Part shown: positions 12,001-26,800 of the stretch, piece by piece
How positions within the stretch are numbered: the first letter of the stretch is position 1
Layout: every line of letters starts with the position of its first letter
Origin: an uncultured Planctomycetia bacterium
Lineage (GTDB): Bacteria > Omnitrophota > Gorgyraeia > Tantalellales > Tantalellaceae
DNA: 64,000 nucleotides
NCBI GenBank assembly: GCA_964421015.1
Contig: CAYQUS010000003.1
Coordinates: 41,269 to 105,268, forward strand
Direction: 5' to 3'
The notes under the pieces: model-generated
Told to the model about the DNA's origin: nothing
Seen by the model: only the letters and a program-made list of their open reading frames with translations
Databases searched by the model: none
Made by a program: the position numbers and the translations under genes

Positions 12001-15000
12001 TGCCTATACGAAAATTCGTAAGGAACCGGCAACGTGGCATTTTGAGACAAAGGGTGAAATAGTGGAACAATGGCCTTCCCGTGGAGGAGACGATAATAGG
12101 TACGGTCCTTGGGTGGAGGATAGAACTTGGGAAGAAAAAGTTGTCGATAGTTACAAAGATGTTGAATACCCTGTTTTCACTAAGACTGCTGAACTCGTTT
12201 CTAACTCTGCTGAACTCGGGAAAGTCTTCGCCGAAACCAAAGCCAGTCTTGCGGTTAAAAGAGCACGTCAAAATGAATACCAGAAGATGTTTGATGTTTC
12301 AGGAGAAGATGAAAGTTTTAACGCATTAGGCAAAATATATGCGTTTTATGAGTTGTTCCCAGGGGCAGATTTTACTCTCGATAATATTTTCCATATCGAT
12401 GGATTTAGTGGACTCGAGAGCAGAGCCTTATTCTCAAAATTGGCAGGGCAAATTAACGACATTGAAAAGCTAAGAGCCATTGCTGTTCTCGTTCTTATGA
12501 GAGTTGAAGGGATAAATAGAGAACTAGTCGAAACTTTAGCGAATCAGGTTGAAGATATTGAAGACTTATATGTTTTGGAAAGCGTTCTTAGGGAGAATGT
12601 TTCCTTGTTGAGGTCGTCAGAAGTTCCTGTCTACCAGGGAATAACCGAAGAGGTTTATCTAAGAACCGATACAGTGGATGTAAAGCAGCATCTTGACTGG
12701 ATAGAGACAGCGAGTGTTCCAGTGTATGAAACTCGCCAAATCGACGATTTTGTGGGATACCGCACTGTAAACGAGTACGATTTTTCAAAACTTGAAGAAC
12801 TCGCAGCAAATACGGAAACATTGAACAGAGTCTTCGCCGAAACCAAAGTCAGGCTTGCGGATGAGAAAGGGTTACCTGCTGAAGAAGTTACAGCTCAGGC
12901 TCCTCTTACTACAGAAACAACTGGAATAGCGGAAATAGAATACACCTCTGAACAGGTTATAACTGACAAGCTTGCGGAAACCGCTCTCTCTATGGGGTAC
13001 GATTCAACTGTGGTAACAGAGCTTGTTGATAAGACGTTGCAGCGTACAGTAACGTATAACGAAGACGGCACGCCGAATTTCGGAAGGCTTGAGGCTCTTA
13101 TGGAAAACCCCATAGCTTTAGGAAGGGTTTTTGAAGTCTTGTCAGCCGACATCCACCCCATATCATGGCAGACATCGGCATGGGCGGCGGCGTTTTACGG
13201 GGCGCTTTCCGTTATTATAGGAATAGGTTCCGTTTCCGGGCTTTCGCTTGGCGGGAACTTTGTTCCGCTTATGGCCGGAGCTCTTGCTATAGTAGCGTCG
13301 ATATACGCCGTTCAGGCCGCGGATGTTTCTTACGGCGTTCTTGCCGGCGCGCCTTCGGCTCTTATATCGCCTTTTGCTAATGCCCTTCCGGCGGAAGAAG
13401 GCTACATAACATATGTAAGAAGCGGCAGGCTACATGTTAACGCCGAAGAAATGGCTAAGCGGCCCAAGGCGCTTCAGTGGCTGTACTATTCGCACGAATA
13501 TCTGCACCTTAAGGGAGTATATTCTCACGCGGCAGTTTACGGTCTTCAGGGTGTTCTAATGGCCGTTACGGCGGGCCTGGGAGTTATACTTGTTTCCACG
13601 GCCGCGGCAATGAGCCCGGCAGCGGTTTCAGGGGTAGGCATAATGGCCCTCGGGACATATTCGGCTTCGGGCCATGCCGAAACAGTCGGTAAACCCGAAA
13701 AAGTTAATGTTTTAAAGTCAAATAGCGTGCCGAACAGCGTATATAACGGTGTTGTATATAGGTATGATCCGAAAGAGGAGGCGCCTAAAGACGAAGAGTC
13801 TATGATGGCTTATCTTGAGGAAACGATGCTTGACTACGGCAGGCAGGGGATGGAAAGGTACTCAGGAAAGCTGTCCCAGGATAACATCAAGGACGAATTG
13901 ACCCATTTGAACGGTGTCAGGTCCTACATTATGAGCAGCACCGGTGATATGACGGTTGAGTATTTCATGATGATGGAAACATTCGGGAAGATCAAGACTG
14001 CCGAAGGTTCTGACATGCCGGTATATCAGCTGATGAATGTGCTGGCTGATGAGCAGAACTGGAGGGCCAGGGCTAAGATATACGCCAATAACGGTACTTA
14101 CGCCGACTTTAAGCAGATAGTTGACCTTTTCCGTAAAGCCGCGGAACAAATGGCTGAATCTTACAGGATAGATCCGTCGGACAGCGAGCTTGAAATAGAA
14201 AAACTCGCGGTAGTAGTTAGCGAACCCGGTTTTATATCTGAAGTTTCGGGCACTCCGGGCATGGCGGAACTGCTTGAGGGTGCTTTGCCGGATGTGGCAG
14301 AGATTATCAGGCAAGGGTATACGGCGAATTTCGCTTTGCGCAGGTGGCTGGAGACGCCCGGGAACGTCGATCTGACTCTTGCGGAAAAAGTTGTAAACAT
14401 GGTATCGTCCAGCCTTTCTGCGATGCATGACGAGGAGCTGGCAAGGTTCATGGAAGAGACCCTTCCCGGAGGAAAATACGCCGGCCGGCCCGTGATAATA
14501 GTAGCCGATAACTTCCTAGCTAGCGAAGAAGAGATAAGAATGCTTACCGAGAAGTTCGGCATAAAAGCGTATGTTTCGTCTAAGGGCGCCAACGAGCTTA
14601 CCGGTCATTACGCGGTAGTGGCCGGGGCGAGCGGTATGTCTATAGCCGCCGGGCTCGAAGAAAGTGTTCTTGCCGGGATAAACACCGGAGATTCATTGTC
14701 GTTCTTCGTGGAAGAACACGGTGAGGACGCGTATCTTCTTTTTACCAGGGAAGACGGCCGGGATTTCAACGAAGAGGCTAATTCCTGGATGCTCACGAGA
14801 ATGCTTAGCGTTACCGCTCTTCAGGACTACTATGCGGAGAGTTCGTCGGGTGACGTTAAACAGACCATAGACAGGGTAAAGTTCCCTGTATTCGGCAACA
14901 TAAACCTGCCTCTTTCTACGGACAGGGCGGTAGGCATGCTTGACAGCCTTATGGAGTCCGGGGCCGACGGCGTAGGGCTTGTAAGGACAGAGTATATGTA

Positions 15001-17329
15001 CGACGGTGTCTCGGCTCCCACCGAGGCTCAGCAGGTAGAGCTCTATTCCGCTCTTGCTGAAAAAGCCGGCGACAAGATAGTAACTTTCAGGACTTTCGAC
15101 AAAGTGGACGATAAAGAGTGTCCCGCTCTTCCCGTAGAGGACGGCAGACGGAGTTTTGATTATTACAGGACACCTGCCGGGAAAGAAGCTTTCACGGCGC
15201 AGTTAAGGGCGCTGTACAAAGCCGCTTTGAGACATGAAAATATCAGGATAATGTTCCCGATGGTAAAGGACATATCCGACATAGAGTTCATAGCTTCGGT
15301 AGCCAGGGAGAACGGCATGAGTCTCGACCGGGTGAGCCTGGGGATAATGATAGAGACCAGAGAACTTCTGGAAGATGGGAACGGTGATCTTTTCGGAGAG
15401 ACAGGCAGTGTTTCTCCCGTCAATATAAGCGCTCTGGCGCTTAAGGCGATACTGTCTAATCAGGCTGTTCCGATAAGTTTCGTCAGCGTGGGGAGTAACG
15501 ATCTTACCTCTGCCGTAAAAGGAAAACCGAGGACAGATATAACCGATGATGATTTCGACAAGGAGATGCTGGTGGTGCTAGAAGGTATAGCCATTGCCCT
15601 CAGACAGGAATATTACAGGAGGGTAGAGAGCGAAGATGATATGGCTGAACTTGAAGAAAGAGAGCCCAGGGCAATACAGCCTGTAACTATGGGTATATGC
15701 GGAGACGCGGCCAAGTTCGACATAACTTTCCTTTTCAGCCTGTACCTGTACAAGACCCATGGGGTGCTTCTCACACCGAGCGCCGTAAGTTCAGTTATTC
15801 CAAGAAGGAAAGCGCTTATTCCTTTTACCAACGCCGAAGGATGGGTAACGTCTTTCGACCACGGCTGGTGGAATCGTACGGAAGAAGAAATAGCCGGCAT
15901 GGTAAGAGCCAAGGTGGACAAGGTTATAGGCAAGATACGCAAGTCCCCTGGCTATATTGAGATGATAAGAAGAAAAGTCAGCGACAGGGTAGGTATGCGG
16001 AAGATGACCGGGGCTCTGGCGATGGCCGGTTTCGGCGGGGAAGGCCTGAAAGTTTTCGGAGAAAAGGTTTCCGAGCTCATGTACGGCTATGTTCCGGAGC
16101 ATCTTGATTCAGTGCTTCCGGCTATGGCCATACTTATACTTTTGGGCGCGCTTGCCTGGAAAGCTTTCTGGACCGCGGCGGATACTAAGAATGAAGCTTT
16201 GCTGGAAGAACAGCTGACGGAACTTTCCTTAAAGCCTTCCGGCCAGAGGAGATGGCCCTCTATGGTTCATGTTATAGGGGTCCAGACATCTATGACCCAG
16301 GCGGAACTTGATATGGAATTTCCGGGTTTCAAGGCCGGCGGGGTAGACATATTGGCCCTTCCGGAAGGGAAGACAAACGAAGAGAACCTGCTTTTACTCG
16401 AAGCCGCACGAAGAGAGCGCAATACCGTATGGTCAAGCTATGTGGACGCTTCGGCTCTTGAAGCCGCCGGCGGAATATCCAGTCTCGGCAGGGTGGCGCT
16501 TGATATGACGAGAGAAATAGAGAAAAGAGAGACCGAGAAGTTCCTTGAGGAAAATTCTCTTGAAGAAATAGAGTCGCTGCGGTCGGCTCTTGAAGGGATA
16601 CTGAAAGAAATGAATCTCCCGGCCATGCTTCCGGAAATCGGGCTTCTCAGCCTTTATAACCTGAGGATAACCGACAGGGCCAGATCCGGTATGCCAGGAT
16701 GGCTTGACGCGACCACGCAGTCTTACATCGAGCGTGAAGATAAGGAATCTCTCGTTCATGTTACCGTGAGTTCTCTGGCCGAAGTTAAGACGCAGGCCGA
16801 AGCTTTCAGGCTAAGAGATCCCAGGAAACTTAAGCTGAGAGTTACCCTTGCAGTCGGTGACGAAACAAGCGAAGACGAACTTGCGGCTATGAAGACCGGC
16901 AAGGCGGCTCTAATGAAGAGTATGGACGTGGACAAGCTTATAGGCGAGGGCGATCTTGAAATAGTAAGAAGGTCCGACATAAAAGCCGGTCTTACCGACG
17001 CTACAATGGCGGCCATACAGTCCGCCAGGAGCACGGGAGGCGACGTTATAAGCGTAGACAGGGTAGAGGATGCCGGCAACCAGGCTAACCAGAACCTGCC
17101 AAAAGGCGTTCTCGAAATGAGGTACAACCAGTACGCTACTGCCGACGTGTTCGACACGGCGCTTAGGGTGCTCGCAAGAGGCGGAGTGGTAGGAGATATC
17201 GCTTCAGCGATAGGCCTTGATCCGTTGACTAATGGAGTAATTATGTATCTCAGGGAGATCAAACCGGAAGATATGGGTACACTTAAAGCCGAGTTCGAAA
17301 GGTACAGAGAGATACTTACCAGAGCGTAA
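2..17329 (+). CDS. Giant (>=5775 aa, 5' end outside window) polytopic membrane multidomain protein. Beta-rich N-terminal region, acidic Thr/Glu/Lys low-complexity linker, many clustered TM helices, ComEA-like helix-hairpin-helix module, C-terminal PEP-utilizing-enzyme phospho-His-like and PEP/pyruvate-binding TIM-barrel domains
   Basis: Uninterrupted 17.3 kb ORF ending TAA 17327-17329. Translation shows 'INTATLEELQTIPGVGPVLAERILEYRQ..VSGIGEKKLESI' (HhH, nt ~11440-11625). 'GANELTGHYAVVAGASGM' lies at nt ~14585-14640. 'GLVRTEYMYDG..PTEAQQ..IVTFRTFD', 'IMFPMVKD' and 'VSVGSNDLTSAV' mark a PEP-utilizing TIM barrel (nt ~14900-15560). Hydrophobic helix clusters at nt ~6000-7800, 9890-10560, 10980-11860, 13150-13680. 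Followed by a palindromic terminator-like repeat. Confidence 0.8.
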   Translation: METLFKAFHYLFKFRDADLVVKDGMLYAKLRKPYQFSELETLNTGDTIVMSLADGKVRQIRIDTVLSENAVVSEGNLWKEFNYEPFAGKVDLGNISSVPAEGFESGVRSYGAGSEKLTVTEYSRDNWEFLKTSFTFINELGEDSVSFTMAETEDVQGLSDPQKTVWIDFHDTARTTRKYVGELEISPEGAKINPTVTDRPILIEDVTHPEGRHDLLSMKKFGIFDEKNPTEQKFFEMDKDGKMFRGVSLEFSDTFDHGIVVVYERVKDAAPGSDEIMMRKTEYVADGVRDFDEYLREYASSGNVSGLEWISEGVYGIREGLDIQGKKKEIWDTYEYRHMNGEYYTVTEVPGDGTDYGVETKSYIQKGRNVFGREYERSFTTLVRDSKVITEQSIQFLAPGEEYKDETGSQRTDFAGRVQTAVKMRPDEVTDIEVLTGAEKVAPGDKAELTRGAIEIPEASFEGIPEEERFVFRTESKEMRFIEGMPRVVKEETRITDSRGEILYTVTTNYRFAWDKGTMEKESTEILVYDNTADENGENKDEVRKYVVEYSPEYPAGRFMERGRYISRDKFLYLASEGKAVRKILNYVDGSEVEREVDLFRYVDRDHPSIDEVYETERWSDPAEDGGARETAVIRVSSMDKRGVSLGMTASDSRVIFTDNDGKETASVPFPQAEEATFERIESSGEIRSLDGALLGNIDLENGMVNVVFGGDQADGPGKVIVLPEGAYLGRSVVRRPVGLASDGKTVEFETITSSFGIYDITGKPYYKHTTEKYPEAEDKAEAHTIVKYNENDKTMSEWLYVIGVSSDSDKRSAELNNPVVSSRHALTRYHGLKDDFYQIELEEKDRIKRDALSGRYSTEDDYQTSYVYDKNGFASQRDSGTLPLASETKVFDPVTQSMKTIEENVYFYNEETGERFIVDVTGILPAEVDKNDPAAVLKYLDETGQTVTVFRTLMPIEMQFEAEQWRTTVSEKEGKISVNYTDPGASLELLRIKHPDSEHFGGTYITVLLSGKAGAYEVEGVFMGKGVHLFYGVAGKKRVREGEELPKDIVTIDPVTGQVLGVREDVLEGWKETRSVSFAYDKGDETVVLNIPGVMSSDELGIPNPDRGDGVFYLQKKVRMPDGQVAFVIAEFKVKLKEGQTYAEALDELAAKRNSLTLEIDFESAGNSLKDLGTLEYLYFPCHMGDDKAQLYQMKIEMNPDRTIGDVVTLNPMEDFKADTNRGWEFEYKEESAPGLTEISKTGTEISLQDVEILMDIAPAELLPREFSIWGEETMRWVKTPQPEGDVMVEYFKPGQTKAFKVTWEIGENEEAKALVEGALAGLPENSIFGKDADKKIKDVVYTFAKENNITDSALLAQGLERAIEMEKVFEEVLGRESGTLASSVSPESRPAMASSVLYWTGKLSVQKDASTGAVTGFSRIGRSLGNRAIQMKPAVVKAMQDLYTKYGSDAQKEGIAAFTTAGTGEELVVLDMAISLAATDITTDRAMKDPAQVISAADMLFDGESYDRAEQGILSDLRKAAVKEFQGILDGTIAQSLSVTIESFMKGKVLAEAENLVEAIQNKPADADESVEKGIEIWKKVVRTYYEAYGDILFSEFVDNRRKAPNMYAFHAQDLKSKVTEILEEAGMENLASEITPEIKVPEVKPEEAALSISLDEMGLNIRPEALTPKVILSENEDLNGKGAVYFYASNETSEEAPGTRNLAGKTVTVTGKMPYQADPDSPIVIALTDTNGNTMAATATVGEDGNLTAVFEKVPASEDFDGTSVVLMETRFAMASTTPPVWSVMGIMVAYMFASFMFMVVRKVRGYGKLLRLSKAGAELKAKTPIPMTGFIADFIRDLGYAWRSDRSFTGAAFKVFFIGLFNIFRGKPAEKKEETKKVKEEEKTETTATDTAREKASLQPLETTKDAEETAVPAATTEAVEEVAIEPAPVTEEEIQTEVDMELVHLGVKEMAHAIRGWVDDIKVDFRMIGIQQEEAGIFLPFMRSSEIWEFSDYAAKPKYSLSNITRGLSMVGLGLAIYGLAGFGGALTWIYPVALMLILPGFFNWLAVAKVSVPGSIGFVLMHTILPLFGMSHPAISVVFSAIFIALYVAAPFYKYLRAISDPNSYVEKQRGQLETLRSMVWIMQNGDESLQRAADWLRSHGDQGQKLEKEELANIADNKDLNLSSEAILYLKARSVWYSKERGKLGLTRKQVIERLELLARFNKNVLPHIKDLRRWRRSHDVGAGTSWIGAKVPGGELEELPEFSKELESTLKELDELVVSTPNEGSFRKDAPFYLLGAGMAMLAGGIGVIFTTGIVVPIVIGVIAVTVSFMLLVAGLGKIRESEMIMSPGRDMKKLWRDNFRIIYSTSSGHELKALALWKGLQEITAAISRETLVIKAEETLSRNRFVNIVQGSLNKMKTALTNVRDTAIVRGFFDSFHLSRNEEFVRKVHMLFNVVVFVLVISVVLQLATFTGLFAVKELANLVLAGEFLSFSEVFAKPFYVLEIGKAIFTSYELQSPFTAVILAFTQTAVFGTTVIMGLWLALGKFVFYFLGDNARHYPQEKVVTSRRVWLNVGIGAAAAIAFAVIPGGSWLAVIGRAVSAVFVGISVFRFFIMRTASTRFKAIVEQDKLLTKDSPMPRVTALTEAQWDEMKRESFDNFVDTVLSRYNAEEQRVILKANEVGKENLSDMEKMVYERTLGRGAEPSRSKYKNFDRASLEEEYKKLTTENLLNRMSGAGFENLKRALGLDCEDLKLWHIQSEDESIKFIANSIKDNETRKKNFENSRNAIKGLSPDVLRDIIDGDLLERRVVLMYDLLPKFTPWIVVVDGAKETPKLVNYLVGYRYPLQRIRIVFAGENWDNGTDDFVQKGKSNSSIPPQLIFRGMPVREDNLNEVDIKKLPREERKKMLMAWVQANHPYTKPGANTSVLDDSDGTSGIIYDAENTPHPLQPLEFILGVMDGVATVRRLSDKFTKAYASSEIGEEDNAAVSVKKASALLEKTLPEYGRALDEKDISDSLRFNIKQKGILKRQMRYFVKHNLKTLLEITEKDPKLFSTGMLFEYIKEQVKAGRSLLEDKEMRELLNLYIVLCNMPGYGEAATEYIKGTLTKDAFVKELIKGEFRRVNEPKNGQGRLAKITNALEFAGPDKGAGSQGSVAAFMYGEYASWYDPGWSGFMASQDTFKPLGGTTGYFCTEVIEEIDWQDQDVQTKLSFTAEENDIVKQHYVTKNKLLAIGAWDEFQVAEDYMLGFVTWWYGFNIAGFMSLTPENPAGFEAEVGYKFRPKQLSRWIKGYNIGLVVLTENWSNVSELWERKGWWGFFVFLVPTLSSAVNPLLFIAARFITQLWWIFFVPVETIRTFLVNITFMDAGSYIQGMLQATQLDTLLLNFQDSVVWFITENLNYLDWSLGAPIVVLPFALHAYFTLRGIFRGVDNRLGMERILAEHDELLEDAQKADPAVVKEVEDRIKAIKEGSLEEVPGLVSPKPFILAASALIGAFVTIIAMPFIVSSGVTFLAGVGVWVAVSLIISLGVNKLTRWYVDSAVKKKANKTPEEEAAEKEEKSIRAMAVRAGSANLFIAFYHATVYLPGNTMAWSEIISGGRTGYWWRTPRVVGQIAQVKKRQDRKFALGEAKIAEFPKPQKEDKVAEDEFIEAFKEKMTKDELIERDLEHTRLWTRLIYGWGFVGAMLLLVAYNFRMNLRDQFITSIVSPFMSGSAPTTYIYQLASSNPLIALGIVAGSIAMAGLLFAVSRSRGRSAVPEASRQETLTLEPRTEEEVIPETGEVKSEAPVAPKPKVPAVGIGIEVSEEEGALLETFETLEEIQAKVNINTATLEELQTIPGVGPVLAERILEYRQTNGDFESIEDLLKVSGIGEKKLESIREYVDIPLELPAASHAVPISNKVGIPIGSIAMLFGAAILASMSAGAEMTGDALPTKGARLFASISGVEIALVAGVIALLVYGAIKLRNYSKANALKLSYKGFSVPMSIAIPLSKLVRNSEDRAAVMDMINRTAYTKIRKEPATWHFETKGEIVEQWPSRGGDDNRYGPWVEDRTWEEKVVDSYKDVEYPVFTKTAELVSNSAELGKVFAETKASLAVKRARQNEYQKMFDVSGEDESFNALGKIYAFYELFPGADFTLDNIFHIDGFSGLESRALFSKLAGQINDIEKLRAIAVLVLMRVEGINRELVETLANQVEDIEDLYVLESVLRENVSLLRSSEVPVYQGITEEVYLRTDTVDVKQHLDWIETASVPVYETRQIDDFVGYRTVNEYDFSKLEELAANTETLNRVFAETKVRLADEKGLPAEEVTAQAPLTTETTGIAEIEYTSEQVITDKLAETALSMGYDSTVVTELVDKTLQRTVTYNEDGTPNFGRLEALMENPIALGRVFEVLSADIHPISWQTSAWAAAFYGALSVIIGIGSVSGLSLGGNFVPLMAGALAIVASIYAVQAADVSYGVLAGAPSALISPFANALPAEEGYITYVRSGRLHVNAEEMAKRPKALQWLYYSHEYLHLKGVYSHAAVYGLQGVLMAVTAGLGVILVSTAAAMSPAAVSGVGIMALGTYSASGHAETVGKPEKVNVLKSNSVPNSVYNGVVYRYDPKEEAPKDEESMMAYLEETMLDYGRQGMERYSGKLSQDNIKDELTHLNGVRSYIMSSTGDMTVEYFMMMETFGKIKTAEGSDMPVYQLMNVLADEQNWRARAKIYANNGTYADFKQIVDLFRKAAEQMAESYRIDPSDSELEIEKLAVVVSEPGFISEVSGTPGMAELLEGALPDVAEIIRQGYTANFALRRWLETPGNVDLTLAEKVVNMVSSSLSAMHDEELARFMEETLPGGKYAGRPVIIVADNFLASEEEIRMLTEKFGIKAYVSSKGANELTGHYAVVAGASGMSIAAGLEESVLAGINTGDSLSFFVEEHGEDAYLLFTREDGRDFNEEANSWMLTRMLSVTALQDYYAESSSGDVKQTIDRVKFPVFGNINLPLSTDRAVGMLDSLMESGADGVGLVRTEYMYDGVSAPTEAQQVELYSALAEKAGDKIVTFRTFDKVDDKECPALPVEDGRRSFDYYRTPAGKEAFTAQLRALYKAALRHENIRIMFPMVKDISDIEFIASVARENGMSLDRVSLGIMIETRELLEDGNGDLFGETGSVSPVNISALALKAILSNQAVPISFVSVGSNDLTSAVKGKPRTDITDDDFDKEMLVVLEGIAIALRQEYYRRVESEDDMAELEEREPRAIQPVTMGICGDAAKFDITFLFSLYLYKTHGVLLTPSAVSSVIPRRKALIPFTNAEGWVTSFDHGWWNRTEEEIAGMVRAKVDKVIGKIRKSPGYIEMIRRKVSDRVGMRKMTGALAMAGFGGEGLKVFGEKVSELMYGYVPEHLDSVLPAMAILILLGALAWKAFWTAADTKNEALLEEQLTELSLKPSGQRRWPSMVHVIGVQTSMTQAELDMEFPGFKAGGVDILALPEGKTNEENLLLLEAARRERNTVWSSYVDASALEAAGGISSLGRVALDMTREIEKRETEKFLEENSLEEIESLRSALEGILKEMNLPAMLPEIGLLSLYNLRITDRARSGMPGWLDATTQSYIEREDKESLVHVTVSSLAEVKTQAEAFRLRDPRKLKLRVTLAVGDETSEDELAAMKTGKAALMKSMDVDKLIGEGDLEIVRRSDIKAGLTDATMAAIQSARSTGGDVISVDRVEDAGNQANQNLPKGVLEMRYNQYATADVFDTALRVLARGGVVGDIASAIGLDPLTNGVIMYLREIKPEDMGTLKAEFERYREILTRA

Positions 17330-17340
17330 CGCATACGAAT

Positions 17341-17383
17341 ACACATTAGTGCCAGGCACCTATGGTGCCTGGCACTAATGTGT
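17341..17383. repeat. 43-nt perfect palindrome (REP-like / terminator-like), copy 1, 12 nt after the ORF1 stop
   Basis: acacattagtgccaggcacc-tat-ggtgcctggcactaatgtgt, with 20-bp arms. Confidence 0.9.
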
Positions 17384-17643
17384 GATAAGCGTCATTCTGA
17401 TGCCCCGATAGGGGCTGAAGAATCTAGAGGCATTAGATCCTTCACTTCGTTCAGGATGACGGAGAGAAGTCAGCTTAAAGAAGCCACCTTGCGCGCGGCA
17501 AGTATTTCCCGGCCGCCTCAGGTGGTTTCGTGGTCTCTGGGATAGAAAAAGGTTTTCAAAAAATGGATCCTGTTGAATATCAGGTACTTGTTGATCTCAA
17601 TAAAGCGCTTTTACGAGTATTGCAGGCAGCTTAATTAACGAAT

Positions 17644-17685
17644 ACACATTGGTGCCAGGCACCATAGGTGCCTGGCACCAATGTG
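17644..17685. repeat. Palindrome copy 2 (variant, loop inverted: ..caccATAggtg..)
   Basis: acacattggtgccaggcacc-ata-ggtgcctggcaccaatgtg. Shares 5' flank cgaatac with copy 1 and 3' flank aaaaagttag with copy 3. Confidence 0.85.
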
Positions 17686-17734
17686 ATAAAAAGTTAGATT
17701 CCATGTTAGTTATGAAAAATCTTGTTATTTTTCA

Positions 17735-17763
17735 TTGAACCTATGTTCGCCTGATAGTACAAT
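17735..17763 (+). promoter_or_regulatory. Sigma70-type promoter of the 4131 aa giant gene
   Basis: TTGAAC (17735-17740), 17-nt spacer, TACAAT (17758-17763), ~40 nt upstream of ATG 17802. Confidence 0.5.
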
Positions 17764-17801: not shown

Positions 17802-20800
17802 ATGCATAAAAATTCACCGTTTTTGCGGTTGGTGGCAGTATTTTTATCTTTGGTCTTTTTTCTTCAGGAAACAGGAGTAGCGGCTGCGGCTACGCAAGTC
17901 CCCGGCGCGTCTGTTCCAACGGTAAAAGTGTCTCCCGAGGCGTTTACCGAACCTGAAATAAAACTTCCTCTTTCCGTTGCTCAGACCGAGAGCTGTTTTT
18001 TCGGTTGCGGCGGAGAAACCATAATCAATATACAGGACGACCATTCGTCTCTTTCCAGGCAGTATTCAATAGTGAACGTTCTGGGAGAGCTTTCATCTAA
18101 CTACAATATCAACGTTGTGGCTATCGAAGGAGGAAGGGGGTATATAGACACCTCTCTACTTAAAAGCCTTCCCGACCGGACCGTAAAAGAGAAAACCGCT
18201 GATTATCTCATGAAGCAAGGGACGATATCGGCCGGCGAGTTTTTCTCGGTAATGTCAGAGGGAGATGTGGCTCTCTACGGCGCCGAAGAAAATGAGCTTT
18301 ACCAGAAGAATCTGGAGCAATTTCGGGCGATATTTTTGAATAATGCCGGAAATAGAAGGATACTGTCGGTACTCATCGAAGAGCTGAAACGAAAAGAGAA
18401 GAGAGTATATTCCGAAGATCTTTGGAGGTTCGTGTATCGCTCGCGCCTTCACGCGGAGGGCCGGCTGAGCCTGGAATCATATTGGGATTTTCTTGTTAAT
18501 GAGCTGGGCCTTGCCGGGGGAAAGATCTCGGATTATCCCGTAATATCAAGTTTTGTAGGGACAGTGGAACTTGAGCGTGAAATAGATTTCGAGAAAGCCA
18601 CAGCGGAGAGAAAACAGCTTATAGACAGGATAATGGAGACGTCTCCTGCTGAAGCGGCAGAGGAACTTGTGGCGAGATCTGTAGATTTTGAGAAAGGAAA
18701 GGTCGATGAAGCGGGGTACCACGAATGGCTCCTGAAGTTTGCCGTTTCCCGGGGAGAGGAACTTTCCGGATATGCCGAGCTTGTTAAATTTTCCAGCTAC
18801 TCTTCATCCTACAGGGAACTTGATGTAACCGCCCTCCATAGGGAACTTGCAACCGCCGAGAAAGAAATTTTTAACAGTCTTTGCGCCGCAAAAGAAGAGT
18901 ATGATCTTTTTCAGGCGGTATCTTCAGCGGAGAAGCTCAAACGGCTTTTCGAGATACGGCTTTCGGCCGATGACGTTGACTCTCTCAAGGAGCTGGCGGA
19001 GGGGCTTTCAGGTAAAAGCATGACGGCGTGGTTGGGCGAGGACGCCGCTGGAACGGCTTCCGGCAAGCTCAGGAAGATCCTTCCTGGGCTTGATAAGCTG
19101 GCGTCAGACGCCAAAGAGGCCATGAAGTTCTACGCGGTGGCCAGAGAGCGCGAGAAGAAAATGATAGCCAACACGGTAAGGGCCATGCGTAACGAGGGTA
19201 AAAGGGCCGCGGCCCTTATATCAGGAGGATACCACTCGTCGGGGCTATCCGGAATGATGAGGGAAAAAGGGCTGAGCTACCTGGTCCTTATGCCGTCCGC
19301 GCAGGGAAATGTGGACAGGTCTTACGTGGCGGTCCTTACAAGGAAAACCGGCCCGTACACGGAACTTGTTAAGAGCGGCTCTTATGAACTGGCGCTTGAA
19401 GCCTATTTCGATTCGGCGGATCTGGATTCATTCGAAAAGATGCTGGCCTTTATAGCGGCGGAGAACGTTATGTCCGGCAAGACACCCATGGACATAGAGA
19501 GGGAGAAAAAGGAGTGGATAGCCCGGCTTAAGGCTGAGCGTGAAACAATGCCCGAGAGAAGGGCCAGACTTTCCGAGCTTGTGGATATAGAGGCTCTTGA
19601 AGAAAGGCTTTCAAGCATTAAGGTGCTTCAGTCATCCGGGGATGAGTGCGAAGTTTCCATAGCCGGAAGGCTTTACCTTGTGGCGGGGGGGGAGGTCTCT
19701 CTTCTGGAAAAGGCCGCCAGGATGCCCGAAAAAAAGACAGATATGAACGTTTTTCTGCCGGCTCTGAAAAAAACTTACAAATTGCCAGGCCAGGCCGCTT
19801 TTTATTCTTCCGGAAGCCTGCTGGGAGAGATAGCCCTGAACTGGGCCGCGACAAGGGATTTCAAGAACGCCGCCGATTCCTTAAGGAAAACGGCGAGAGC
19901 CCGGAAAAAGAACCCCAGCATACTTGAGGCGGCTCTATGGAACATAAATGAGGCCGCCAAGATGATGAAAATGGCTCCTGAGATAAAGGAGATAATAGAT
20001 TCCCCCGAAAAAGTCACGGAAGTAAATTTCACGGTGGGGCTTGATGACGGCACGAGCGTGGAGATATGGGGTTTCAGGGCCTTGCATAACGGATCGCGCG
20101 GAGCGGGAAAGGGCGGGCTCAGGTGGCTTGTGGCTAAGGATGAAACTCCCGAAGACGCTATGAAGGCCGCTGTCGGGCTGGCTACTCTTATGAGCATAAA
20201 AAATTCCGGCGTAGGTATACCTTACGGCGGCGGTAAAGGCGATATTTTTGTTCCGGACAGGAAATATACCGACAGTGATAAAGCCCGGATAGTAAGAGCC
20301 TTCTCACGGGAGCTTACCCTGAAAGAAGCGGTAGGAACTTTTCAGGATGTTCCCGCGCCCGATAAAGGGACCGACGCTCGCATGATGGCCTGGTTCCTTG
20401 ACGAGCATATCCGCACACTCCTTGAGATGGGAAAGATACACGATAAGCTTCTCCAGGAAGAGCTGAGAAAAAATCTGGCGGATACCGATCCCGGTGAGCT
20501 TGTTCAGTCCGACGAGAAAACACCTTACCTGGATATTTACATCGATGTTCTTGAGAACGATGACACGGGCGTTTTGAGAGGAGTGGAGCTGGGAGTTATA
20601 ACCGGTAAGCCTTTGAGGAAGGGAAAGAAGGTTCAGCTTGGGTCTCTCGGCCGCACAAAAGCCACGGGGTTCGGCGGGTTCATAGCCTTCAGGTCAGTTC
20701 TGGAAAAGTTCTCCGCCATGAAAGATATGGACGGCGATGTAATAGCCGGAACACTTAACCCCTCAGTGAGGCGCGTACTCAAAAAGAATATAAGCGACAT

Positions 20801-23800
20801 GACGGTTGCGGTACAGGGAACGGGCAATGTAGGAGAATATAACGCGTGGGAATTTTTCAGAGCCGGCGCCAGAGTGACAATGCTGGAAGACTGGCATGAA
20901 GGGACGAATTGGACGCTGTACGGCGATAAAGGCATCGACCTCGAAAAGCTTAACTCGGCTTTGGAGCGGCTTCCCGACGGCAGATGGGCGCCCCTTGCCA
21001 CGCTGCCGGAGAAATTTCTAAGAGAGAACGGTTACGAGCTTAAAAAAGGGACAAGCGAGTTCTGGGATACTTATAGTGACGTAAAGGTTCCTGCGGCAAC
21101 GGAGAACCAGATAACCTATTCCAACGCCGAGGATATTAACTGCGCCATAGTGCTGGAACTTGCCAATAATCCCACTACTCCCGAGGCGGACGCTATACTC
21201 GCGAAAAGAGGCCTTCTTGTTATCCCGGATGTGGTCGCTAACGCGGGGGGCGTAACAGTTTCTTATTTTGAGTGGCTGCAGAACATAGAGGGGAGATACT
21301 GGAGCGACATAAGTGTCGACATGATGCTTGAAGAAAGGATGGAGACGGAGATCAGGGATGTTATGGCCGTGGCTCAGAGGTTTTCCTCGGAGTTTCGGGA
21401 AGAGGGCGGTTCCGCCGGGCGCAATGTTTTCAGGCAGGCGGCGTATATTCTGAGCCTGGCCAGGATAGCCGACGCCGAGCTCTCGAGAAAACCTGAGCTG
21501 ATGGTACAGCTGACGGGTGACAACAGGGAACCTTACAGGTTCCGCGGAAGTCTGGGGCTTGTGCCCGAGACGGTAGAGGCTCTTAATGATGTTTCTTCCG
21601 ACGTGGAAAAATTCAGGGACCTTGCGGATTTTTGCGAGGCGCGCCATGAGAGAGAGATAAGAGGCATAGTCGCGGACGTGGAAAAGAAGTTCGCCGGCGC
21701 TAAAGGCGGGTTCGTTCTGGTCTCGGGTCCGGTTACAAGCGGAAAGATGGCCGTATCCGACAGAATAACCGCGGGGCTCATCGAGAACGGGTTAAAAGCC
21801 AGGAAAATAGATATCGACGAAATGATATTCCCCAAAGAAAGGTTCTGGAGGCAGAGCGGGCTTGATGAAAGCAGGGTGCATGAACTCGCTATAGCAGAGA
21901 TAACGAATATTCTTGAAGATCTTATGTCGCGCGTTAGCTCGGAGATATTTGTTCTGGAAGGAAGTTACGTGCTGGACGAGGCGTTCCTCGACAGGGAAAA
22001 GGGCCTGCTGAAAAACGAGAATACTTACGGGATATTCACCAACATGGCCCCGGCAATGAAAATGTCGGGTAACGTTCCCCTTACATCTCTGGACATGAGG
22101 CTCATACGGCACATACTTACTTTTCAGAGGGTTTTCGGCTCTTCCCCGATAGACATAATAAGAGAATGGCCGTTGACGAGGGAAAACAATCTTAAGTACG
22201 TGTACCCGTCGTGGAAGAACGCCGACACTACGTTCAACAGCTACCTGCCGTATGAATTAGCCGTTCTTAAAAGCCCTGTTACAAGGGCCCTGCGCGACGC
22301 CATGGAAAACGCCTCTAACGACCTCGAGAAGTCCACAATAGAAAGGCTTCTTGGCATACTTTCCGGAGTTGAAGACGCGCCCGGGACAGCTGGCCTTGAC
22401 GTGAATTCGGTAATAAGGCAGTTCATAGGCGCTCCCTCGTACCTTGATGAGATGGAAGCGGATGATGTGTTGTCGATGTACCGAGGCGAATACGTGGAGA
22501 ACCACGCCAGGAGGGTCACGGATATCGGCGCCGTCCTGGCCGAAGAGATGGGAATAAGGAGAACCGACCCCGGGCTTTTTAACGATATCCTCTCGGCCTG
22601 CGCCGCCCATGATTTCGGAAGCCCCGGATCTCCCATAGACCCGGCTGATTTCGCGCGTATACGGACAAGCCTGGCTTCAAGGGGAGTAGATGTGCCAGAA
22701 AAAACATCCAGGGACGAAAACTGGCATGCCTCTCTTTTTGAGCGTTTCAGCGCGGCCAAGCCTGGGGAATTTTCCGCTGAAGAGGTTGATCTTGCTCTTG
22801 ATATGTTCCAGGGGCCGGACTCCCTGAGGCGCCTGGCCATGCGCGGCGCCGTGCCCTCCAGGCCGGTCAGGACCGCTATACTTTTTCATCACCACGCCGG
22901 AGAGTTGGAGACTTATCTTTCCGGAAAAGACTGGCCGGAGAAGGAAAAGGAAAGGACGCGCTTGATCCTTTCGGTGCTTGTAGCCGCGGATGTCATAGAG
23001 AACGGCATGAATCTGTTCAAAAAAATATTTTTCAGGAACACCTACGTCGTTGAGACCCCGGATGAGACAATGAGATTCCTGGACCCGGCAAGAAGCGGTA
23101 TCCCAAGGACAGAAGCGATAGAGGCGTACAAACGAATTGTCGCTGAAAGCCCCGAAAAGCTCCGTGGTATAAGCGAAAGGGCGTTCGATATATCACCTCA
23201 GGAAGAAGAATTCCTTCTAAAGGCCGAAAAGGTCTTGATAGATAGAGGGGAGATTCACGGAGCCGGGCCCGAGAGAGGAGGGACGACGGCCGTAATAAAA
23301 ACCCTGAAAAATATTTCGGGTAAAAAAACGCCTTTCGGGTATTATGCCGTTAGCGTGGCTCCCAGGGTGGAAGAAAGACTTTTCTTTCTTGTTCCGGCAG
23401 TTCTCGGTTTCGCGCTTGACGTTGCGTTTTCGGGAGGCGGGGTTATAACACTTTCATCAATGGTAACAGCCAGGGCGCTTTTTCTGGTTTCGCACGGCAA
23501 GTTTGCTTTTTCAGGGTTTTTAACGAGAGGCCACGCGCCCTCGAGGGTAGCTATAGCCGGGGTTTTAGGTGTTCTCCCTCTTGCCGCCGTTTCCTGGCTG
23601 GGCCTTCCTTTGTTCCTGGCGCTCGCCGCGGGCGGAGTACTGCTGCCGGTTTCATATTTTTCCGTAAAAAGGTATCACTCCTTCATGAACAATTTGGCGC
23701 TACGGAGCGGGAATCTTCCCGCTGTTATGGGGCATTCTGGCGACATCTTTCTTCTGGGCGACGCAGACGCCGATAACATAATAAAAGGCATAGCTTCACA

Positions 23801-26800
23801 TCATGTGCTTGTAAAGGCGGCATCAACCGAGGGGATAACTCCCGCTGAATATTCCAGATGGGTAGATGTAGACGATGAGGCTTCTCTGCTGAGAGGATTC
23901 AGGGCCCTGGCCGCGATGGGAGCCATGGAGAACGGCATAGAAGCGGCCGACGGAGCCAAGGCTTACCGGATCACTTCCTCCGGCATGGAACTATTGAAGG
24001 CCACCTGGAAAAATAATCTTAAAGAGTGGCTTGAGGCCATGTCGTCCCTGCCCGATAATTCGCCCGAAAAATCAAGGCTTTTCCAGGAGCTCAGAGAAAG
24101 CCGGTTTCTTGGTTTTACCAGAGGCAAAGAGTATCCGGCTGAGAGACTTGAAGTGCTGAAAGAGAACCGGACCAGGGTGCTGGACGCCATATTTATAGTC
24201 CTTACAGGCATGCTTGACGGGTCGGTTTCTTACAAAAGGAGCGATATACTTTTTTCCACCATGTACATTACAGCTCTTCTGGACATCGCCGAAACCAGCG
24301 CCGATGAGGCGTTCCTGGAAGATATACTGGAGAGGCTGATGGGGCTTCCCAACGCCACGGACGCCGAAGCCCAGGGGGAGATGCAAAAGTTTTTCATGCA
24401 TACTATATCTTCTTATCCCGGTAAAGCCAAGACGCTTGTTTTTCACCTTATGGCTGGTTTGCAGGAGAACGGGAATGTTATCAAGGAAACGGACAATCCT
24501 CTTTTTGATCTTATGGACCTTCTGCATAAAGCCGGCGGCGGCGACTTCTACTATTTTCTCCGAAGAGTATCGGGGATGTATTTCATGGACAATTCGGGCC
24601 AGGTAAACGTGGGGGTCGACCACCCCTTGAGGGTAAGGACCCGAAGCGGCAGTTACGGGCTTGATATAGACGGAGTTGTAAGGGACTCCATACACAATAA
24701 TCTCGGTGTTTATGTTCTTGGGCTTCTTGAGCGGATGCTGGAATACTACCGCACCGGGAACGTTGAGATCCTGGGGGACAAGGATTACGAGGTAGACGCT
24801 TTCAGGAACGATGCCGTGAAGGGGCTCGATGCCTGCTTTCCGGAAGAAGGAACAATAGACGTCAGAAGGAACAGGCCCTTGTACCCGGATACATGGCACG
24901 AAGCGGCCGTTCGGATATTTCACCATCTTGAGGGACGTCTGGGAGAAGATGCCGGAGCCGAAGGCGCAACGAGATATGAAAAGCTGAGGAATATATCCGA
25001 CGAAGGTCTGCAGAAGATCTATGACGCGGTAAACGAGGAGCTCGGCCCGGGGTTCCCGAAGATGGAGGTCAATGATACCGGGTACGGGTTCTCGGGATAT
25101 TTTTACGCGTACAGGGAACTTAGCCGCAGGTACAAGAGAGCGGATTCCGAAGAAGACCTTAAAGGTAACCTGAGGAGGCTCTCAGCGGTTTACCGGAACG
25201 TCAGGAATATAATCGGCCCCAGCGGCATTGCCGACGCCGGGAAAGTAGAAGGGGAAGCGTATTCCCCGGAAAAGGAGCTTTCCAGGATACTCGAGGTAAA
25301 GTCGGCTATAAGGGGAAAAATACTCGATATCGAGGCCGAGCCTTACGACAGGACCGCCGTGGAGGAAATATTTACCGAGGATTGGGGCGTGGATTACACT
25401 GGTAACGCCTACGGCGGAGCCTGGGTTAAGGATGAGCTTTTGGGGCTCTACATGGCCGATCACGGTGTCTCTCTGCTCTTGGCCAGGGTTATTGAAAAAA
25501 TGGAAAGTACCCTGGTGAAAGGTATAAATCAGGACAATATTGAAGAGGCTCTGAGATACCTGAAAGTCCTGGCCGAGATAAATAATGTTAACGGTCTCAT
25601 GCCGAGGTCTTTTGTCGATAAAGTCGATACCCTTATTGAGGAGAAGGCGATTGACGCTACGGTCGCAAGGGACCTTGTGAGCCTTCTTGAGGACGAGTAC
25701 ATAGAGAACGAGCGGTATATTACCCACAATATGAAGGTGTACATAGAGAGGATACTCGATATTAAAAAAGTGTTCGGAACGGAAGCCCGCAACAGCGAGA
25801 TCAATAGGCGCATATCTTCCTTATTAAGGTCCGAGAGAGAATACTACGCTCTTTTCAGCCTTCTAAGAAGGATAGGAGTTTATCTTGAGGGGATGGAAGG
25901 TGTTCTGGGAACGGAAAGGGCGGGTGTGGAAGAGCTGCCTTACACGCTATTCGGGCCGGGAACGGAAAAAGATGTTCTCGACAGCGCTCTGGGCCAGGGC
26001 AGGTACAGGCTTTCCGGCAAGGGGATAGAGCTTGTGAGGATGGCCAGGGAGGGGCTACCGGTGCCGGAGGGAATAATAGTCCCGGCTACGTTCGACGTTA
26101 CCCGCACGGTCAACTCTGCCGTTTCTGCCGTGTCCGCTTGGCCGCACGGGGATGAGGTTTTGGGTTCTTCCGAGCGGCCACTTGTTGTGTCGGTGCGTTC
26201 CGGAGGGTATTTTTCAATGCCGGGCCAGCTCCCGACAATAGTTAACGTAGGGCTTTCGAGAAGCACCATAGATGGATTCATGAAAGTTCTTTCGGAAAAA
26301 CACGGACTAGGCGAAGACGAGGCCGCGTGGACGGCATGGGATTCCTATGCCAGGTTCCTGAGAAGTTACGCCGGCGAGGTCATGAAAATAAGCGAGGAAG
26401 AATTTATCCGGGAAGACGAGAGAGTTTTTTCTCAGTACGGTGTTTCAGGCGGGATTGAACTGGGATGGGAAGATAAACGCGCTTTAGCGGAAAGGTACGA
26501 GAATCTTATAGAGAGACTTCGCCCGGGAGAGTTTCCCGCTTCTCCCGAAGAACAGTTCGAAAAAAGCGTTGAGGCGGTCAAGTCCGCCTGGGAAGGTACG
26601 GAAAAATACAGGGAGAACATCAGGTTGAACGGGCACTGGCCGGGTACCGCCGTTATAGTGCAAAAGATGGTCTATGGCAACATCAGAAGATCTTCAGGTG
26701 CCGGCGTAATAAATTCAAGGAACGTTAACGTCAGGGAAACCGGAATAAAGGGTGATTTTCTTTTCTCTGCCCAGGGAGAAGACATAGCCCAGCACCGCAA

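Follow-up and report, generated by a model that had tools for sequence, protein, structure and literature searches.

Two giant proteins of an Omnitrophota bacterium share an N-terminal domain that probably belongs to a very divergent TIKI/EreA-ChaN-like hydrolase family

The window analyzed here, a 64,000-nucleotide stretch of contig CAYQUS010000003.1 (GCA_964421015.1; uncultured Planctomycetia bacterium, assigned by GTDB to the Omnitrophota), contains three giant open reading frames (ORFs), two of which, the neighbors G2 and G3, begin with a similar domain that we call the head (Table 1). When the first 600 amino acids of each protein (window positions 17802 to 19601 for G2 and 30547 to 32346 for G3) were compared by BLASTP, residues 3 to 515 of G2 aligned with residues 7 to 517 of G3 in a single colinear alignment, with 27% identity and 47% positives (E = 5e-64). 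Whole-protein BLASTP restricted the similarity of G2 and G3 to the head segment and matched G1 to neither protein at E ≤ 1e-5; the head is thus the sole similarity among the window's three giant ORFs. When every six-frame ORF in the window was scanned with a head HMM, only G2 and G3 matched (E = 4.5e-197 and 9.9e-171). The initial annotation had proposed that these two proteins share a paralogous, colinear N-terminal domain; the BLASTP similarity over residues ~55 to 535 and the HMM bear this out, and the G2 and G3 strings that it quoted are found in the translations. Its G2 coordinates (17980 to 19360, residues ~60 to 520) agree with the HMM envelope; its G3 range (30727 to 32050) overlaps the head but ends about 30 residues earlier than the envelope.

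Table 1 Positions of the giant ORFs, their leaders, and the parts of their heads (window coordinates; G2 or G3 residue numbering)
Feature	Position	Strand	Residues	Basis or remark
G2 ORF	17802-30197	+	4131 aa	
G2 leader (putative)	17802-17891	+	1-30	Translation; hydrophobicity scan (segment 10-28, KD 1.94)
G2 whole head (TIKI-like)	17952-19400	+	51-533	HMM envelope; AF2 model, pLDDT 82.5, pTM 0.71; BLASTP to G3, E = 5e-64
G2 core, N-terminal half	17979-18290	+	60-163	Model secondary structure; invariant residues in 144 homologues
G2 Asp79-x-His81 codons	18036-18044	+	79-81	Asp and His each 144/144; directly follow core strand
G2 Glu109 codon	18126-18128	+	109	144/144; 28 residues past His81
G2 helical lobe	18291-19109	+	164-436	Model secondary structure; conservation in 144 homologues
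G2 core, C-terminal half	19110-19367	+	437-522	Models; alignment of 144 homologues
G2 Arg450 codon	19149-19151	+	450	144/144; 28 residues before His478
G2 His478 codon (G-G-x-H motif)	19233-19235	+	478	144/144; directly follows core strand
G3 ORF	30547-39678	+	3043 aa	Neighbor of G2
G3 leader (putative)	30547-30651	+	1-35	Inferred from translation only
G3 head	30706-32139	+	54-531	Paralogue of G2 head; HMM envelope and alignment; BLASTP
G3 key residues	D82 30790-30792, H84 30796-30798, E112 30880-30882, R452 31900-31902, H480 31984-31986	+		Alignment

Each head follows a leader. That of G2 consists of a basic n-region, the hydrophobic stretch LVAVFLSLVFFL, and then GVAAAA, and reads as a putative Sec signal peptide or signal anchor. 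That of G3 has a K-rich n-region, the hydrophobic stretch VSAIFLIAAFSF, and then ...ISSA/VTQ; the KD hydrophobicity scan did not flag it at a threshold of 1.6. The equivalent leaders of family members share a conserved F-x-x-Q-Q-[IV]-x-W-A-[QA]-G motif. The hydrophobic N-terminal leader is our sole ground for inferring that the head is probably exported and lies outside the cytoplasm.

The two heads belong to a large family. An exhaustive profile search of 1.84 billion cluster representatives (50%-identity clusters) returned 9346 matches at E ≤ 1e-3 and 6139 at E ≤ 1e-30. The head is N terminal in all of the best 150 matches, in proteins of up to 7834 amino acids, and starts between residues 1 and 129 in each of 144 full copies, with varied domains downstream. 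GTDB species genomes hold at least 577 head loci, and the best 80 of these all lie in Omnitrophota metagenome-assembled genomes or in bins with the title "uncultured Planctomycetia"; one contig often carries several. The downstream domains include PPDK_N, PEP-utilizers, and GDH in G2, PGM/PMM in G3, and HEAT in the relatives P0011 and P0014; those of cytoplasmic enzyme type (GDH, PGM) fit poorly with an exported N terminus.

In the models, the head is an alpha/beta core interrupted by a helical lobe. The N-terminal half of the G2 core runs from a beta hairpin through a strand leading to Q-D79-x-H81, a helix, a strand leading to E109-G110, and helices that bear S-A-G-E146-F-F, to a strand with the sequence L-Y-G160-x-E162. 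The lobe, predicted to have ~12 helices in G2, is inserted between this third core strand and the helix that carries Arg450; it measures 250 to 307 amino acids (median, 272) in the 144 homologues and has conserved residues of its own (E258 in 144/144, Y333 in 143/144, R270 in 142/144, E353 in 140/144, and Y337 in 137/144). The C-terminal half of the core comprises the helix F-Y444-x-x-A-x-x-R450-x-x-x-M-x-x-N457-T and the strand-bearing motif A-A-L-I-S-G475-G476-x-H478-x-x-G481, followed by a helix, the strand S-Y-L-V-L-M-P498, and a conserved tail, R506-P-Y508-x-A-x-L-T513. We also modeled the core as an artificial construct from which the lobe was deleted, using an alignment with the G2 core construct in the first row and natural sequences below. 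This core-only AlphaFold (AF2) model (pLDDT 88.7, pTM 0.85) reproduces the secondary-structure elements of the full model, with about seven strands in one sheet.

Structure searches with these models point to the TIKI superfamily. Against the PDB, the best Foldseek match of the core model was HopBA1 (5t09; E = 3.4e-3, prob 1.00, TM 0.40/0.38, 13% identity over 167 columns), with BcR135 farther down the list (3b55 at rank 28, 2rad at rank 33); against BFVD, it was a Marseillevirus "TraB family protein" (E = 1.1e-3, prob 1.00, TM 0.46/0.44). With the whole-domain model, EreC (6xcs) and ChaN (2g5g) were among the best 50 of 350,542 chains, the EreC match having an E of 1.4 and a TM of 0.14 to 0.16, with a lobe of 250 to 307 amino acids set against the four-helix bundle of EreC. 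HopBA1, BcR135, ChaN, and EreC are stated to have one common fold (PMC7979712, PMC6254334). The likeness to the TIKI/TraB/GumN/erythromycin-esterase group suggested by the initial annotation therefore holds at the level of predicted structure, in that the best match in both libraries is a TIKI/Ere-ChaN-superfamily member and no other fold was assigned; these best matches reach E values of only ~1e-3 and TM scores of 0.38 to 0.46 (below 0.5), with rmsd values of 6.8 to 13 Å. Helical-bundle proteins such as AhlB/ClyA pore toxins, MukB, and dynein dominated the whole-domain list (E ≥ 0.19, prob ≤ 0.28), and we set them aside as reflecting generic helical-lobe architecture.

Sequence and profile searches gave fainter signals. 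Pfam searches of the native domains and 19 natural homologues found nothing above the gathering score and one faint relevant match, of PF04187 (ChaN, Cofac_haem_bdg) to the G3 head (E = 0.021). PF04187 was matched below threshold by 6 of 39 core constructs as well (profile positions 145 to 204 of 213); across G3 and the constructs, E ranged from 0.012 to 0.13 and scores from 12.7 to 15.2 bits among the matches listed, versus a cutoff of 27.7. Core constructs also matched DUF5694 (E = 4e-4, profile positions 126 to 184 of 185) and, in 10 of 39 cases, DUF5682, both below the gathering score; a literature search on these two families found nothing. The weak Pfam matches agree on one register, that of the Arg helix and the G-x-x-H strand. 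PF01963 (TraB_PrgY_gumN) and PF05139 (Erythro_esterase) had zero matches in the Pfam searches of native domains, homologues, and core constructs. Searching the PDB by phmmer and hmmsearch with head sequences and profiles yielded nothing significant, troponin C and dehydroquinate synthase being chance matches, and NCBIfam gave only noise and no consistent family for the 39 constructs. Comparison of the 144-sequence core with the E. coli YbaP (TraB) family by hhalign returned a probability of 6% in a noncanonical register, at Neff values of only 3.2 and 2.3 (2.5 to 6% with YbaP alone or as a family); the YbaP profile is shallow because the homologue search gave only close enterobacterial orthologues. 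Because the profile tests are sub-threshold and the Foldseek matches have E values of ~1e-3 and TM scores of 0.38 to 0.46, the assignment to the TIKI superfamily is probable, not proven. The head is absent from Pfam and NCBIfam and probably adds a new and highly divergent family to a known superfamily.

The pattern of invariant residues is consistent with this assignment. Across the 144 full-copy homologues (mean pairwise identity, 39%), D79, H81, E109, R450, G475, G476, and H478 (G2 numbering) are invariant, and G481 is present in 142. Conservation of His and Glu across homologues, proposed as a check by the initial annotation, is complete at H81, E109, and H478, as it is at D79 and R450, and the C-terminal G-G-x-H-x-x-G motif that it described is right. 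Its N-terminal motif, T-I-x-H, is not: the histidine concerned, His79 of G3, has Asn as its G2 counterpart, and only 26 of 144 homologues have His there. Judged from the sequences, the conserved N-terminal histidine is the one in Q-D-x-H (His81 in G2, His84 in G3), five residues farther on. The models place D79-x-H81, E109, and H478 each after a predicted strand and R450 on the preceding helix. This is the TIKI/EreA-ChaN order of acid-x-His, Glu, Arg, and His, with Asp rather than Glu as the first acid.

Spacing likens the head to several characterized proteins. In G2, 28 residues separate His81 from Glu109 and 28 separate Arg450 from His478. The same two intervals occur in the EreC catalytic set E47/H50/E78/R261/H289 (PMC7979712), and they are 28 and 29 in the RRSP set E3900/H3902/E3930/R4001/H4030 (PMC6254334); H85 and E113 of BcR135 are likewise 28 apart (PMC6254334). 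D79-x-H81 corresponds to the E-x-x-H of EreC (E47/H50) and the E-x-H of RRSP (E3900/H3902). The erythromycin esterases (EreC 6XCS/6XCQ, BcR135 3B55, BcR136) may share with the head a build of an alpha/beta major lobe joined to a helical lobe, but they have no significant sequence match to it, their lobe is a four-helix bundle rather than ~12 helices, and they are stand-alone proteins of ~400 amino acids, whereas the head follows a leader at the N terminus of proteins of 3 to 8 kaa; its substrate is surely not a macrolide. HopBA1, a Pseudomonas syringae type III effector, resembles the core in its single-lobe EreA/ChaN-like fold and differs in being a small secreted effector without a helical lobe, at a TM of only 0.40; its own biochemical activity is unknown (PMC7979712). 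The TraB/PrgY/GumN group (PF01963; E. coli YbaP, Enterococcus PrgY, eukaryotic Tiki) has a comparable strand-x-x-H, strand-E, R-N/R-D helix, and G-x-x-H-x-x-G, although the YbaP spacing, taken from its translation, differs (26 residues from H41 to E67 and 24 from R228 to H252). PrgY and Tiki are extracytoplasmic domains that trim peptide or protein N termini. RRSP/DUF5 of MARTX toxins, which is absent from the Foldseek matches listed for the head models, is a TIKI-fold protease domain within a giant multidomain secreted protein and has the 2His/2Glu and Arg set at near-identical spacing; it sits internally and is delivered into host cells as an effector module, whereas the head is always N terminal and is the shared, not the variable, module.

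Together, these observations make it probable that the G2 and G3 heads represent a very divergent TIKI/EreA-ChaN-like hydrolase family (the superfamily of TraB/PrgY/GumN, erythromycin esterase, HopBA1, and RRSP) behind a Sec-type leader, and an exported His/Glu hydrolase is the most likely identity on sequence and model grounds. Residues ~60 to 163 and ~437 to 500 would form a small alpha/beta core; Asp79-x-His81, Glu109, and His478 would lie at the C termini of its strands, and Arg450, on the preceding helix, would complete the catalytic set. If the head works as proposed for EreC, a water bound between Glu109 and His478 would lose a proton to His81, which Asp79 would orient, and would then act as the nucleophile on the carbonyl of an ester or peptide, while Arg450 would stabilize the oxyanion or transition state or bind the substrate. 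Such chemistry may proceed without a metal, and metal binding is not required of the head because EreC and RRSP are both described as metal independent (PMC7979712, PMC6254334). The helical lobe, which occupies the same Glu-to-Arg segment as the helical minor lobe of EreC and BcR135, is a probable substrate-binding lid.

Could the head have this fold and yet be no enzyme? It might instead be a binding, anchoring, or export-handling module linking the large protein to the envelope or to secretion machinery, and the superfamily does have noncatalytic members: ChaN binds heme, and the C1/C2 domain of PMT is without Ras-cleaving activity (PMC6254334, PMC7979712). The strict N-terminal place of the head by the leader in 144/144 homologues would suit a biogenesis or anchoring handle, and E258, R270, Y333, and E353 of the lobe could form a binding surface. 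PMT, however, is without the 2His/2Glu motif (PMC6254334), whereas the head keeps all catalytic positions, and five such positions retained in 144/144 sequences at ~39% identity are a signature of retained catalysis rather than of binding, so that we regard a nonenzymatic role as unlikely. We give about the same low credence to a generic three-layer alpha/beta core, Rossmann-like or RecA/KaiC-like, with a convergent TIKI motif, in which case the head would be a wholly new Omnitrophota-specific domain. KaiC/RecA-like domains do follow closely in the PDB list of the core model, from E = 9e-3, and KaiC C1 domains make up most of that list (E = 9e-3 to 0.1), while every profile link to TIKI families is sub-threshold and TM to TIKI members stays below 0.5. 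Yet the KaiC matches have prob values of 0.2 to 0.6 and rmsd values of 11 to 12 Å, whereas HopBA1 and the TraB-family protein both reach prob 1.00; the first strand is followed by Q-D-x-H-S-S-L-S-A-Q, with no Walker A/P-loop; four different TIKI-superfamily structures were recovered over three Foldseek searches; and the five invariant residues match the EreC/RRSP set and spacing (with 29 for Arg to His in RRSP). With Walker motifs absent and Foldseek probabilities poorer, we rejected a P-loop/RecA (KaiC) reading of the head.

Motifs of the G-G-G-H kind, and D-x-H following a first strand, are also known from metallophosphoesterases and DHHA1 domains, and in principle D-x-H ... G-G-x-H could point to a metal-dependent domain of phosphoesterase or phosphomutase type (metallophosphoesterase, DHH/DHHA1, or cofactor-independent PGM-like). 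In NCBIfam, 7 of 39 core constructs weakly matched PRK04200, the archaeal cofactor-independent phosphoglycerate mutase (best E = 0.0028), and 5 of 39 matched TIGR02535, E values that are unremarkable given 39 queries; an iPGM identity was discarded as noise without a consistent family. Such folds are absent from the best 50 Foldseek matches of the core in both the PDB and BFVD, the predicted single sheet of about seven strands contrasts with the double-sheet sandwich of metallophosphoesterases, and GDxxDR, GNHE, and DHH motifs are absent from the head alignment. We consider a metal-dependent domain of this type very improbable.

For the exported hydrolase that we favor, the distribution of the head bears on function: thousands of large Omnitrophota proteins that are mutually unrelated downstream begin with this lineage-specific module, and it therefore most likely serves one common function, which would be exerted at the outer face of the cytoplasmic membrane. 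The head may process or mature its own large protein by proteolysis or ester cleavage, or it may act on a substrate of the envelope or of prey. N-terminal C39 and S8 peptidase domains next to a signal peptide have been described in Omnitrophota giants and suggested to cut these into pieces (bioRxiv 10.1101/2023.11.21.568195); these peptidase-type domains, whose folds are unrelated to that of the head, likewise sit at the N termini of very large proteins. Apart from them, N-terminal regions of giant proteins are said to "generally lack identifiable domains" (West-Roberts et al. 2023, bioRxiv 10.1101/2023.11.21.568195), and the TIKI-like head is mentioned neither there nor in a 2026 complete-genome preprint. 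The archaeovorin-type giants of the former study exceed 30,000 amino acids and carry glycosyltransferase, methyltransferase, peptidase, NUDIX, HEAT, PPDK, and sugar-phosphate enzyme domains (bioRxiv 10.1101/2023.11.21.568195); G2 (4.1 kaa) and G3 (3.0 kaa) are similar in domain flavor and far under that paper's size threshold. A bolder and rather unlikely extension is that the head is the common maturation enzyme of Omnitrophota surface "polyproteins," cutting or trans-esterifying its own or paralogous giants into enzymes after export or attaching them covalently to the envelope. The conserved tail, modeled with low confidence, could then be a cis substrate or pseudosubstrate. If true, bacteria would have a counterpart of viral polyprotein processing, built on a fold for which no such role is known so far.

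Omnitrophota have some of the longest proteins known. Our analysis shows that a single N-terminal module heads thousands of their large proteins; this module is probably a His/Glu hydrolase with the TIKI/Ere fold that is still active. The family definition is a candidate addition to Pfam/InterPro, and the head can serve as a marker to find large Omnitrophota genes and set their starts in fragmented metagenomes. Under the assignment, the TIKI superfamily would reach a new, phylum-specific setting, in a form whose helical lobe is unusually large; the assignment also offers a testable hypothesis on how large Omnitrophota proteins may be processed or may act at the cell surface.

Three very long plus-strand open reading frames, G1, G2 and G3, occupy the first 40 kb of the window, and the region at issue is the N-terminal ~530 residues of G2 and of G3. 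BLASTP of the N-terminal 600 residues of each returned a single colinear alignment (535 columns, 27% identity, E = 5e-64). In whole-protein BLASTP, the similarity between G2 and G3 is confined to this segment, and the portion of G1 inside the window has no similarity to either at E ≤ 1e-5. When all six-frame ORFs of the window were scanned with a domain HMM, only the G2 and G3 ORFs matched. These checks bear out the paralogous N-terminal domain proposed in the initial annotation, and this domain (the head) is a module common to giant proteins that are otherwise unrelated. The peptide strings quoted there are present in the translations, and its coordinates agree with the domain envelopes.

Coordinates of the giant ORFs, their domains and neighboring features in the window
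Feature	Window (nt)	Strand	Residues	Details
G1	2-17329	+	>5775 aa	continues past left window edge
G1 ComEA-like HHH_3			~3812-3872	
G1 PEP-utilizers_C			~4953-5119	
Palindromic repeat copies	17340-17385, 17640-17690, 39690-39730, 58000-58040, 60140-60180			~45 bp, intergenic
Sigma-70-like promoter	17735-17763			9/12; upstream of G2
G2	17802-30197	+	4131 aa	
G2 leader	17802-17891			includes FFLQETGVAAA
G2 head envelope	17952-19400	+	51-533	domain HMM
G2 head tail	19293-19400		498-533	
G2 Glu/Leu/Phe/Val dehydrogenase (GDH), full	20004-21485		735-1227	ELFV N E=3e-26, C E=6e-50
G2 hydrophobic helices	23379-23654		1860-1951	three, closely spaced
G2 PPDK_N and PEP-utilizers mobile domains	26172-27422		~2791-3206	far downstream of dehydrogenase
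Sigma-70-like promoter	30390-30418			TTGACT-17-TATAAT, 11/12; ~130 bp upstream of G3 start
G3	30547-39678	+	3043 aa	
G3 head envelope	30706-32139	+	54-531	domain HMM
G3 head tail			500-531	
G3 PGM/PMM domains I-III	35461-36777		1639-2076	
ORF between G3 and PGM/PMM gene	40005-41699		564 aa	TTG start; no Pfam match
Second PGM/PMM, two genes downstream of G3	41683-44529		948 aa	domains I-IV, more complete; ~400-aa C-terminal extension, unannotated
Apparent mannan-utilization cluster	44649-53366			two ABC sugar permeases; ROK-family protein; solute-binding protein; two GH113 mannanases, one with F5/8-type C domain; two mannanase-type carbohydrate-binding proteins

G1, whose N terminus lies beyond the window, contains some 21 hydrophobic TM-like segments, and Pfam matches nothing in its first 3,000 residues. 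G2 carries housekeeping-type enzyme domains inside a protein with an N-terminal leader. The stronger promoter, near consensus, and the weaker one suggest, as consensus matches only, that the giants may have promoters of their own. A near-perfect palindromic repeat (ACACATTrGTGCCAGGCACC-nnn-GGTGCCTGGCACyAATGTG) closely follows the G1 and G3 stop codons, also precedes G2, and has two more copies near 58 to 60 kb; its 12-mer GGTGCCWGGCAC has 22 matches versus 0.25 expected, and the repeat resembles either a REP-like element or a common terminator/operator hairpin. Beyond the mannan cluster are a PMT_2-type glycosyltransferase, GT2, YdjC and an MscS channel.

Word-indexed searches found only 10 to 14 relatives of the head, all unannotated "hypothetical protein, partial" entries in Candidatus Omnitrophota MAGs. 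When 1.84 billion cluster representatives were searched exhaustively with a profile, 9,346 matched at E ≤ 1e-3 (8,193 at ≤1e-10 and 6,139 at ≤1e-30); the profile contained some columns past the head, so that some of the weakest of the 9,346 may be something other than head domains. In each of the best 150 of these, the match starts at the N terminus of a protein of up to 7,834 amino acids, and the full domain, present in 144 of 157 collected sequences, always starts at residue 1 to 129. Scanning a single genome for each GTDB species confirmed at least 577 head loci, the best 80 of which are all in Omnitrophota MAGs or TPA bins titled "uncultured Planctomycetia"; among the matches listed, there are often several per genome and sometimes three per contig (e.g., PLNN01000019.1). 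What follows the head varies widely among carriers: GDH, PPDK_N and PEP-utilizers domains in G2, PGM/PMM in G3, and HEAT repeats, enolase or PEMT in relatives.

An AlphaFold2 model of G2 residues 51 to 533, built from 19 sequences, is confident (pLDDT 82.5, pTM 0.71) except in the final ~30 residues. Numbered as in the model (G2 position minus 50), N-terminal strands (10-16, 23-29, 55-58, 62-64, 107-111) and helices (34-51, 76-88, 94-101) are followed by an all-helical lobe (114-370) and then by a long helix (371-414), a strand (419-425), a helix (429-438) and a strand (442-448). The N- and C-terminal parts would make a single alpha/beta core split by the lobe, which is 250 to 307 residues long in all 144 full-length homologs (median, 272). 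A core-only model, from an alignment with the G2 core construct in row one above 45 natural sequences, reproduces these elements (pLDDT 88.7, pTM 0.85).

Across the 144 domains (mean pairwise identity, 39%; range, 29 to 62%), D79, H81, Q87, E109, G110, G160, E258, Y444, R450, M462, G475, G476, H478, P498 and Y508 (G2 numbering) are invariant, some of them within the lobe, and residues conserved at ≥96% include E146, N170, R270, Y333, E353, N457, T458 and R506. D79-x-H81, E109-G110 and G475-G476-x-H478 each directly follow a core strand; R450 and N457 sit on the long helix running into the G-G-x-H strand. The N-terminal "T-I-x-H" motif of the initial annotation gives way to [IV]-Q-D-x-H, which holds the conserved His; the His first proposed (G3 His79) is His in 26 of 144 domains and Asn in G2. 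Straight after the last core strand comes a conserved tail, P498 ... R506-P507-Y508-x-A-x-L512-T513-x-K515-x-x-x-Y519 (P498, R506, P507, Y508 and T513, 98 to 100%; L512, 94%; K515, 89%; Y519, 97%), in which R506 is Arg in 143 of 144 domains, the exception being G3 with Ser. Its pLDDT is 28 to 38 in the full model and 55 to 65 in the core model; conserved but unstructured beside a putative hydrolase, it may serve as an interface, as a pseudosubstrate or as a site of cis cleavage.

Is this a TIKI domain, or a generic alpha/beta domain unrelated to TIKI? Sequence tests of TIKI/TraB/Ere membership gave nothing significant. The G3 head faintly matches PF04187 (ChaN, "Tiki superfamily"; E = 0.021). 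Among 39 core constructs with the lobe cut out in silico (G2 60-179 plus 437-522 and equivalents), 6 matched PF04187 (best E, 0.042), 10 matched DUF5682 (best E, 0.068; family consensus, 0.009) and 2 matched DUF5694 (E, 4e-4). These matches are sub-threshold but convergent: the Arg helix and G-x-x-H strand map to the C-terminal end of each profile. PDB sequence searches were empty, and hhalign against the E. coli YbaP (TraB) family, a shallow comparator alignment, gave 6% probability in a noncanonical register. In Foldseek searches of the PDB, the lobe dominates the whole-domain model, which finds only nonsignificant helical-bundle matches, with EreC (6xcs_A, E = 1.4) and ChaN (2g5g, E = 1.6) in the listed top 50 from 350,542 chains. 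The core model has HopBA1 (5t09) as its top PDB match (E = 3.4e-3, prob 1.00, TM 0.40/0.38, 167 columns), followed by many KaiC C1 chains (E, 9e-3 to 0.1; prob, 0.2 to 0.6; rmsd, 11 to 12 Å), with BcR135 at ranks 28 and 33; in BFVD, its top match is "TraB family protein [Marseillevirus LCMAC201]" (E = 1.1e-3, prob 1.00, TM 0.46/0.44). HopBA1, BcR135/136, ChaN, PMT and EreC have been described as sharing one fold (PMC7979712) and, with RRSP, have been termed the TIKI superfamily (PMC6254334). The best matches in PDB and BFVD and four different members overall therefore indicate the same superfamily, and we argue against an unrelated alpha/beta domain. A KaiC-type P-loop domain, the only competitor, was excluded because the head has no Walker A motif and the KaiC structure matches score worse.

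We likewise argue against a noncatalytic TIKI-fold handle and a phosphoesterase-type domain. In EreC (E47, H50, E78, R261, H289), which is metal independent, the general base H50 is oriented by E47; H50, E78 and H289 hold water and R261 stabilizes the transition state (PMC7979712). RRSP, also metal independent, uses E3900, H3902, E3930, H4030 and R4001, and BcR135 has H85 and E113 (PMC6254334). The corresponding head set, D79, H81, E109, R450 and H478, is invariant at all five positions. His-to-Glu spacing is 28 residues in EreC, RRSP, BcR135 and the head, and Arg-to-His spacing is 28 in EreC and the head and 29 in RRSP. A helical minor lobe is present in EreC and BcR135/136 as well; that of the head is far larger.

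Both giants begin with a basic n-region and a hydrophobic stretch, which by the positive-inside rule would place the head outside the cytoplasmic membrane. In most family members (P0001-P0043), the stretch precedes F-x-x-Q-Q-[IV]-x-W-A-[QA]-G, a motif that fits the signal-peptidase -3/-1 pattern; it is loose in G2 and leaves no trace in G3. Many database entries carry 30 to 45 more residues upstream, probably mis-called starts. The downstream domains are cytoplasmic-type enzymes, which renders the topology puzzling, as West-Roberts et al. also pointed out. A hydrophobicity scan found three further helices mid-G2 and no such segments in G3; should the G2 N terminus be exported, the head and GDH would lie on the outer side of the membrane, with the PPDK-like part on the inner side.

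Together, these results are best read as a divergent TIKI/Ere-fold hydrolase domain, predicted to be catalytically intact, an assignment we hold with good though incomplete confidence. It would be exported at the N terminus of large multidomain Omnitrophota proteins and would use a His/Glu-activated water to attack a peptide or ester bond, the helical lobe acting as a substrate-binding lid. The superfamily and its chemistry are already known. The head family is new to the databases and literature checked: it has no model in Pfam (2025 copy) or NCBIfam (2026) and is not described in either of two papers on long Omnitrophota proteins, one of them by West-Roberts et al.; in one of the two, N-terminal regions are said to "generally lack identifiable domains," C39 and S8 peptidases excepted. 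Also new are the size of the family, its restriction to Omnitrophota within the searches run, its unvarying place at the N terminus of giant proteins and the ~270-residue helical lobe. The head is constant and the remainder of the protein varies, so its function is probably one that every carrier shares; it may serve to process or mature the large protein, or act on the envelope or on prey.
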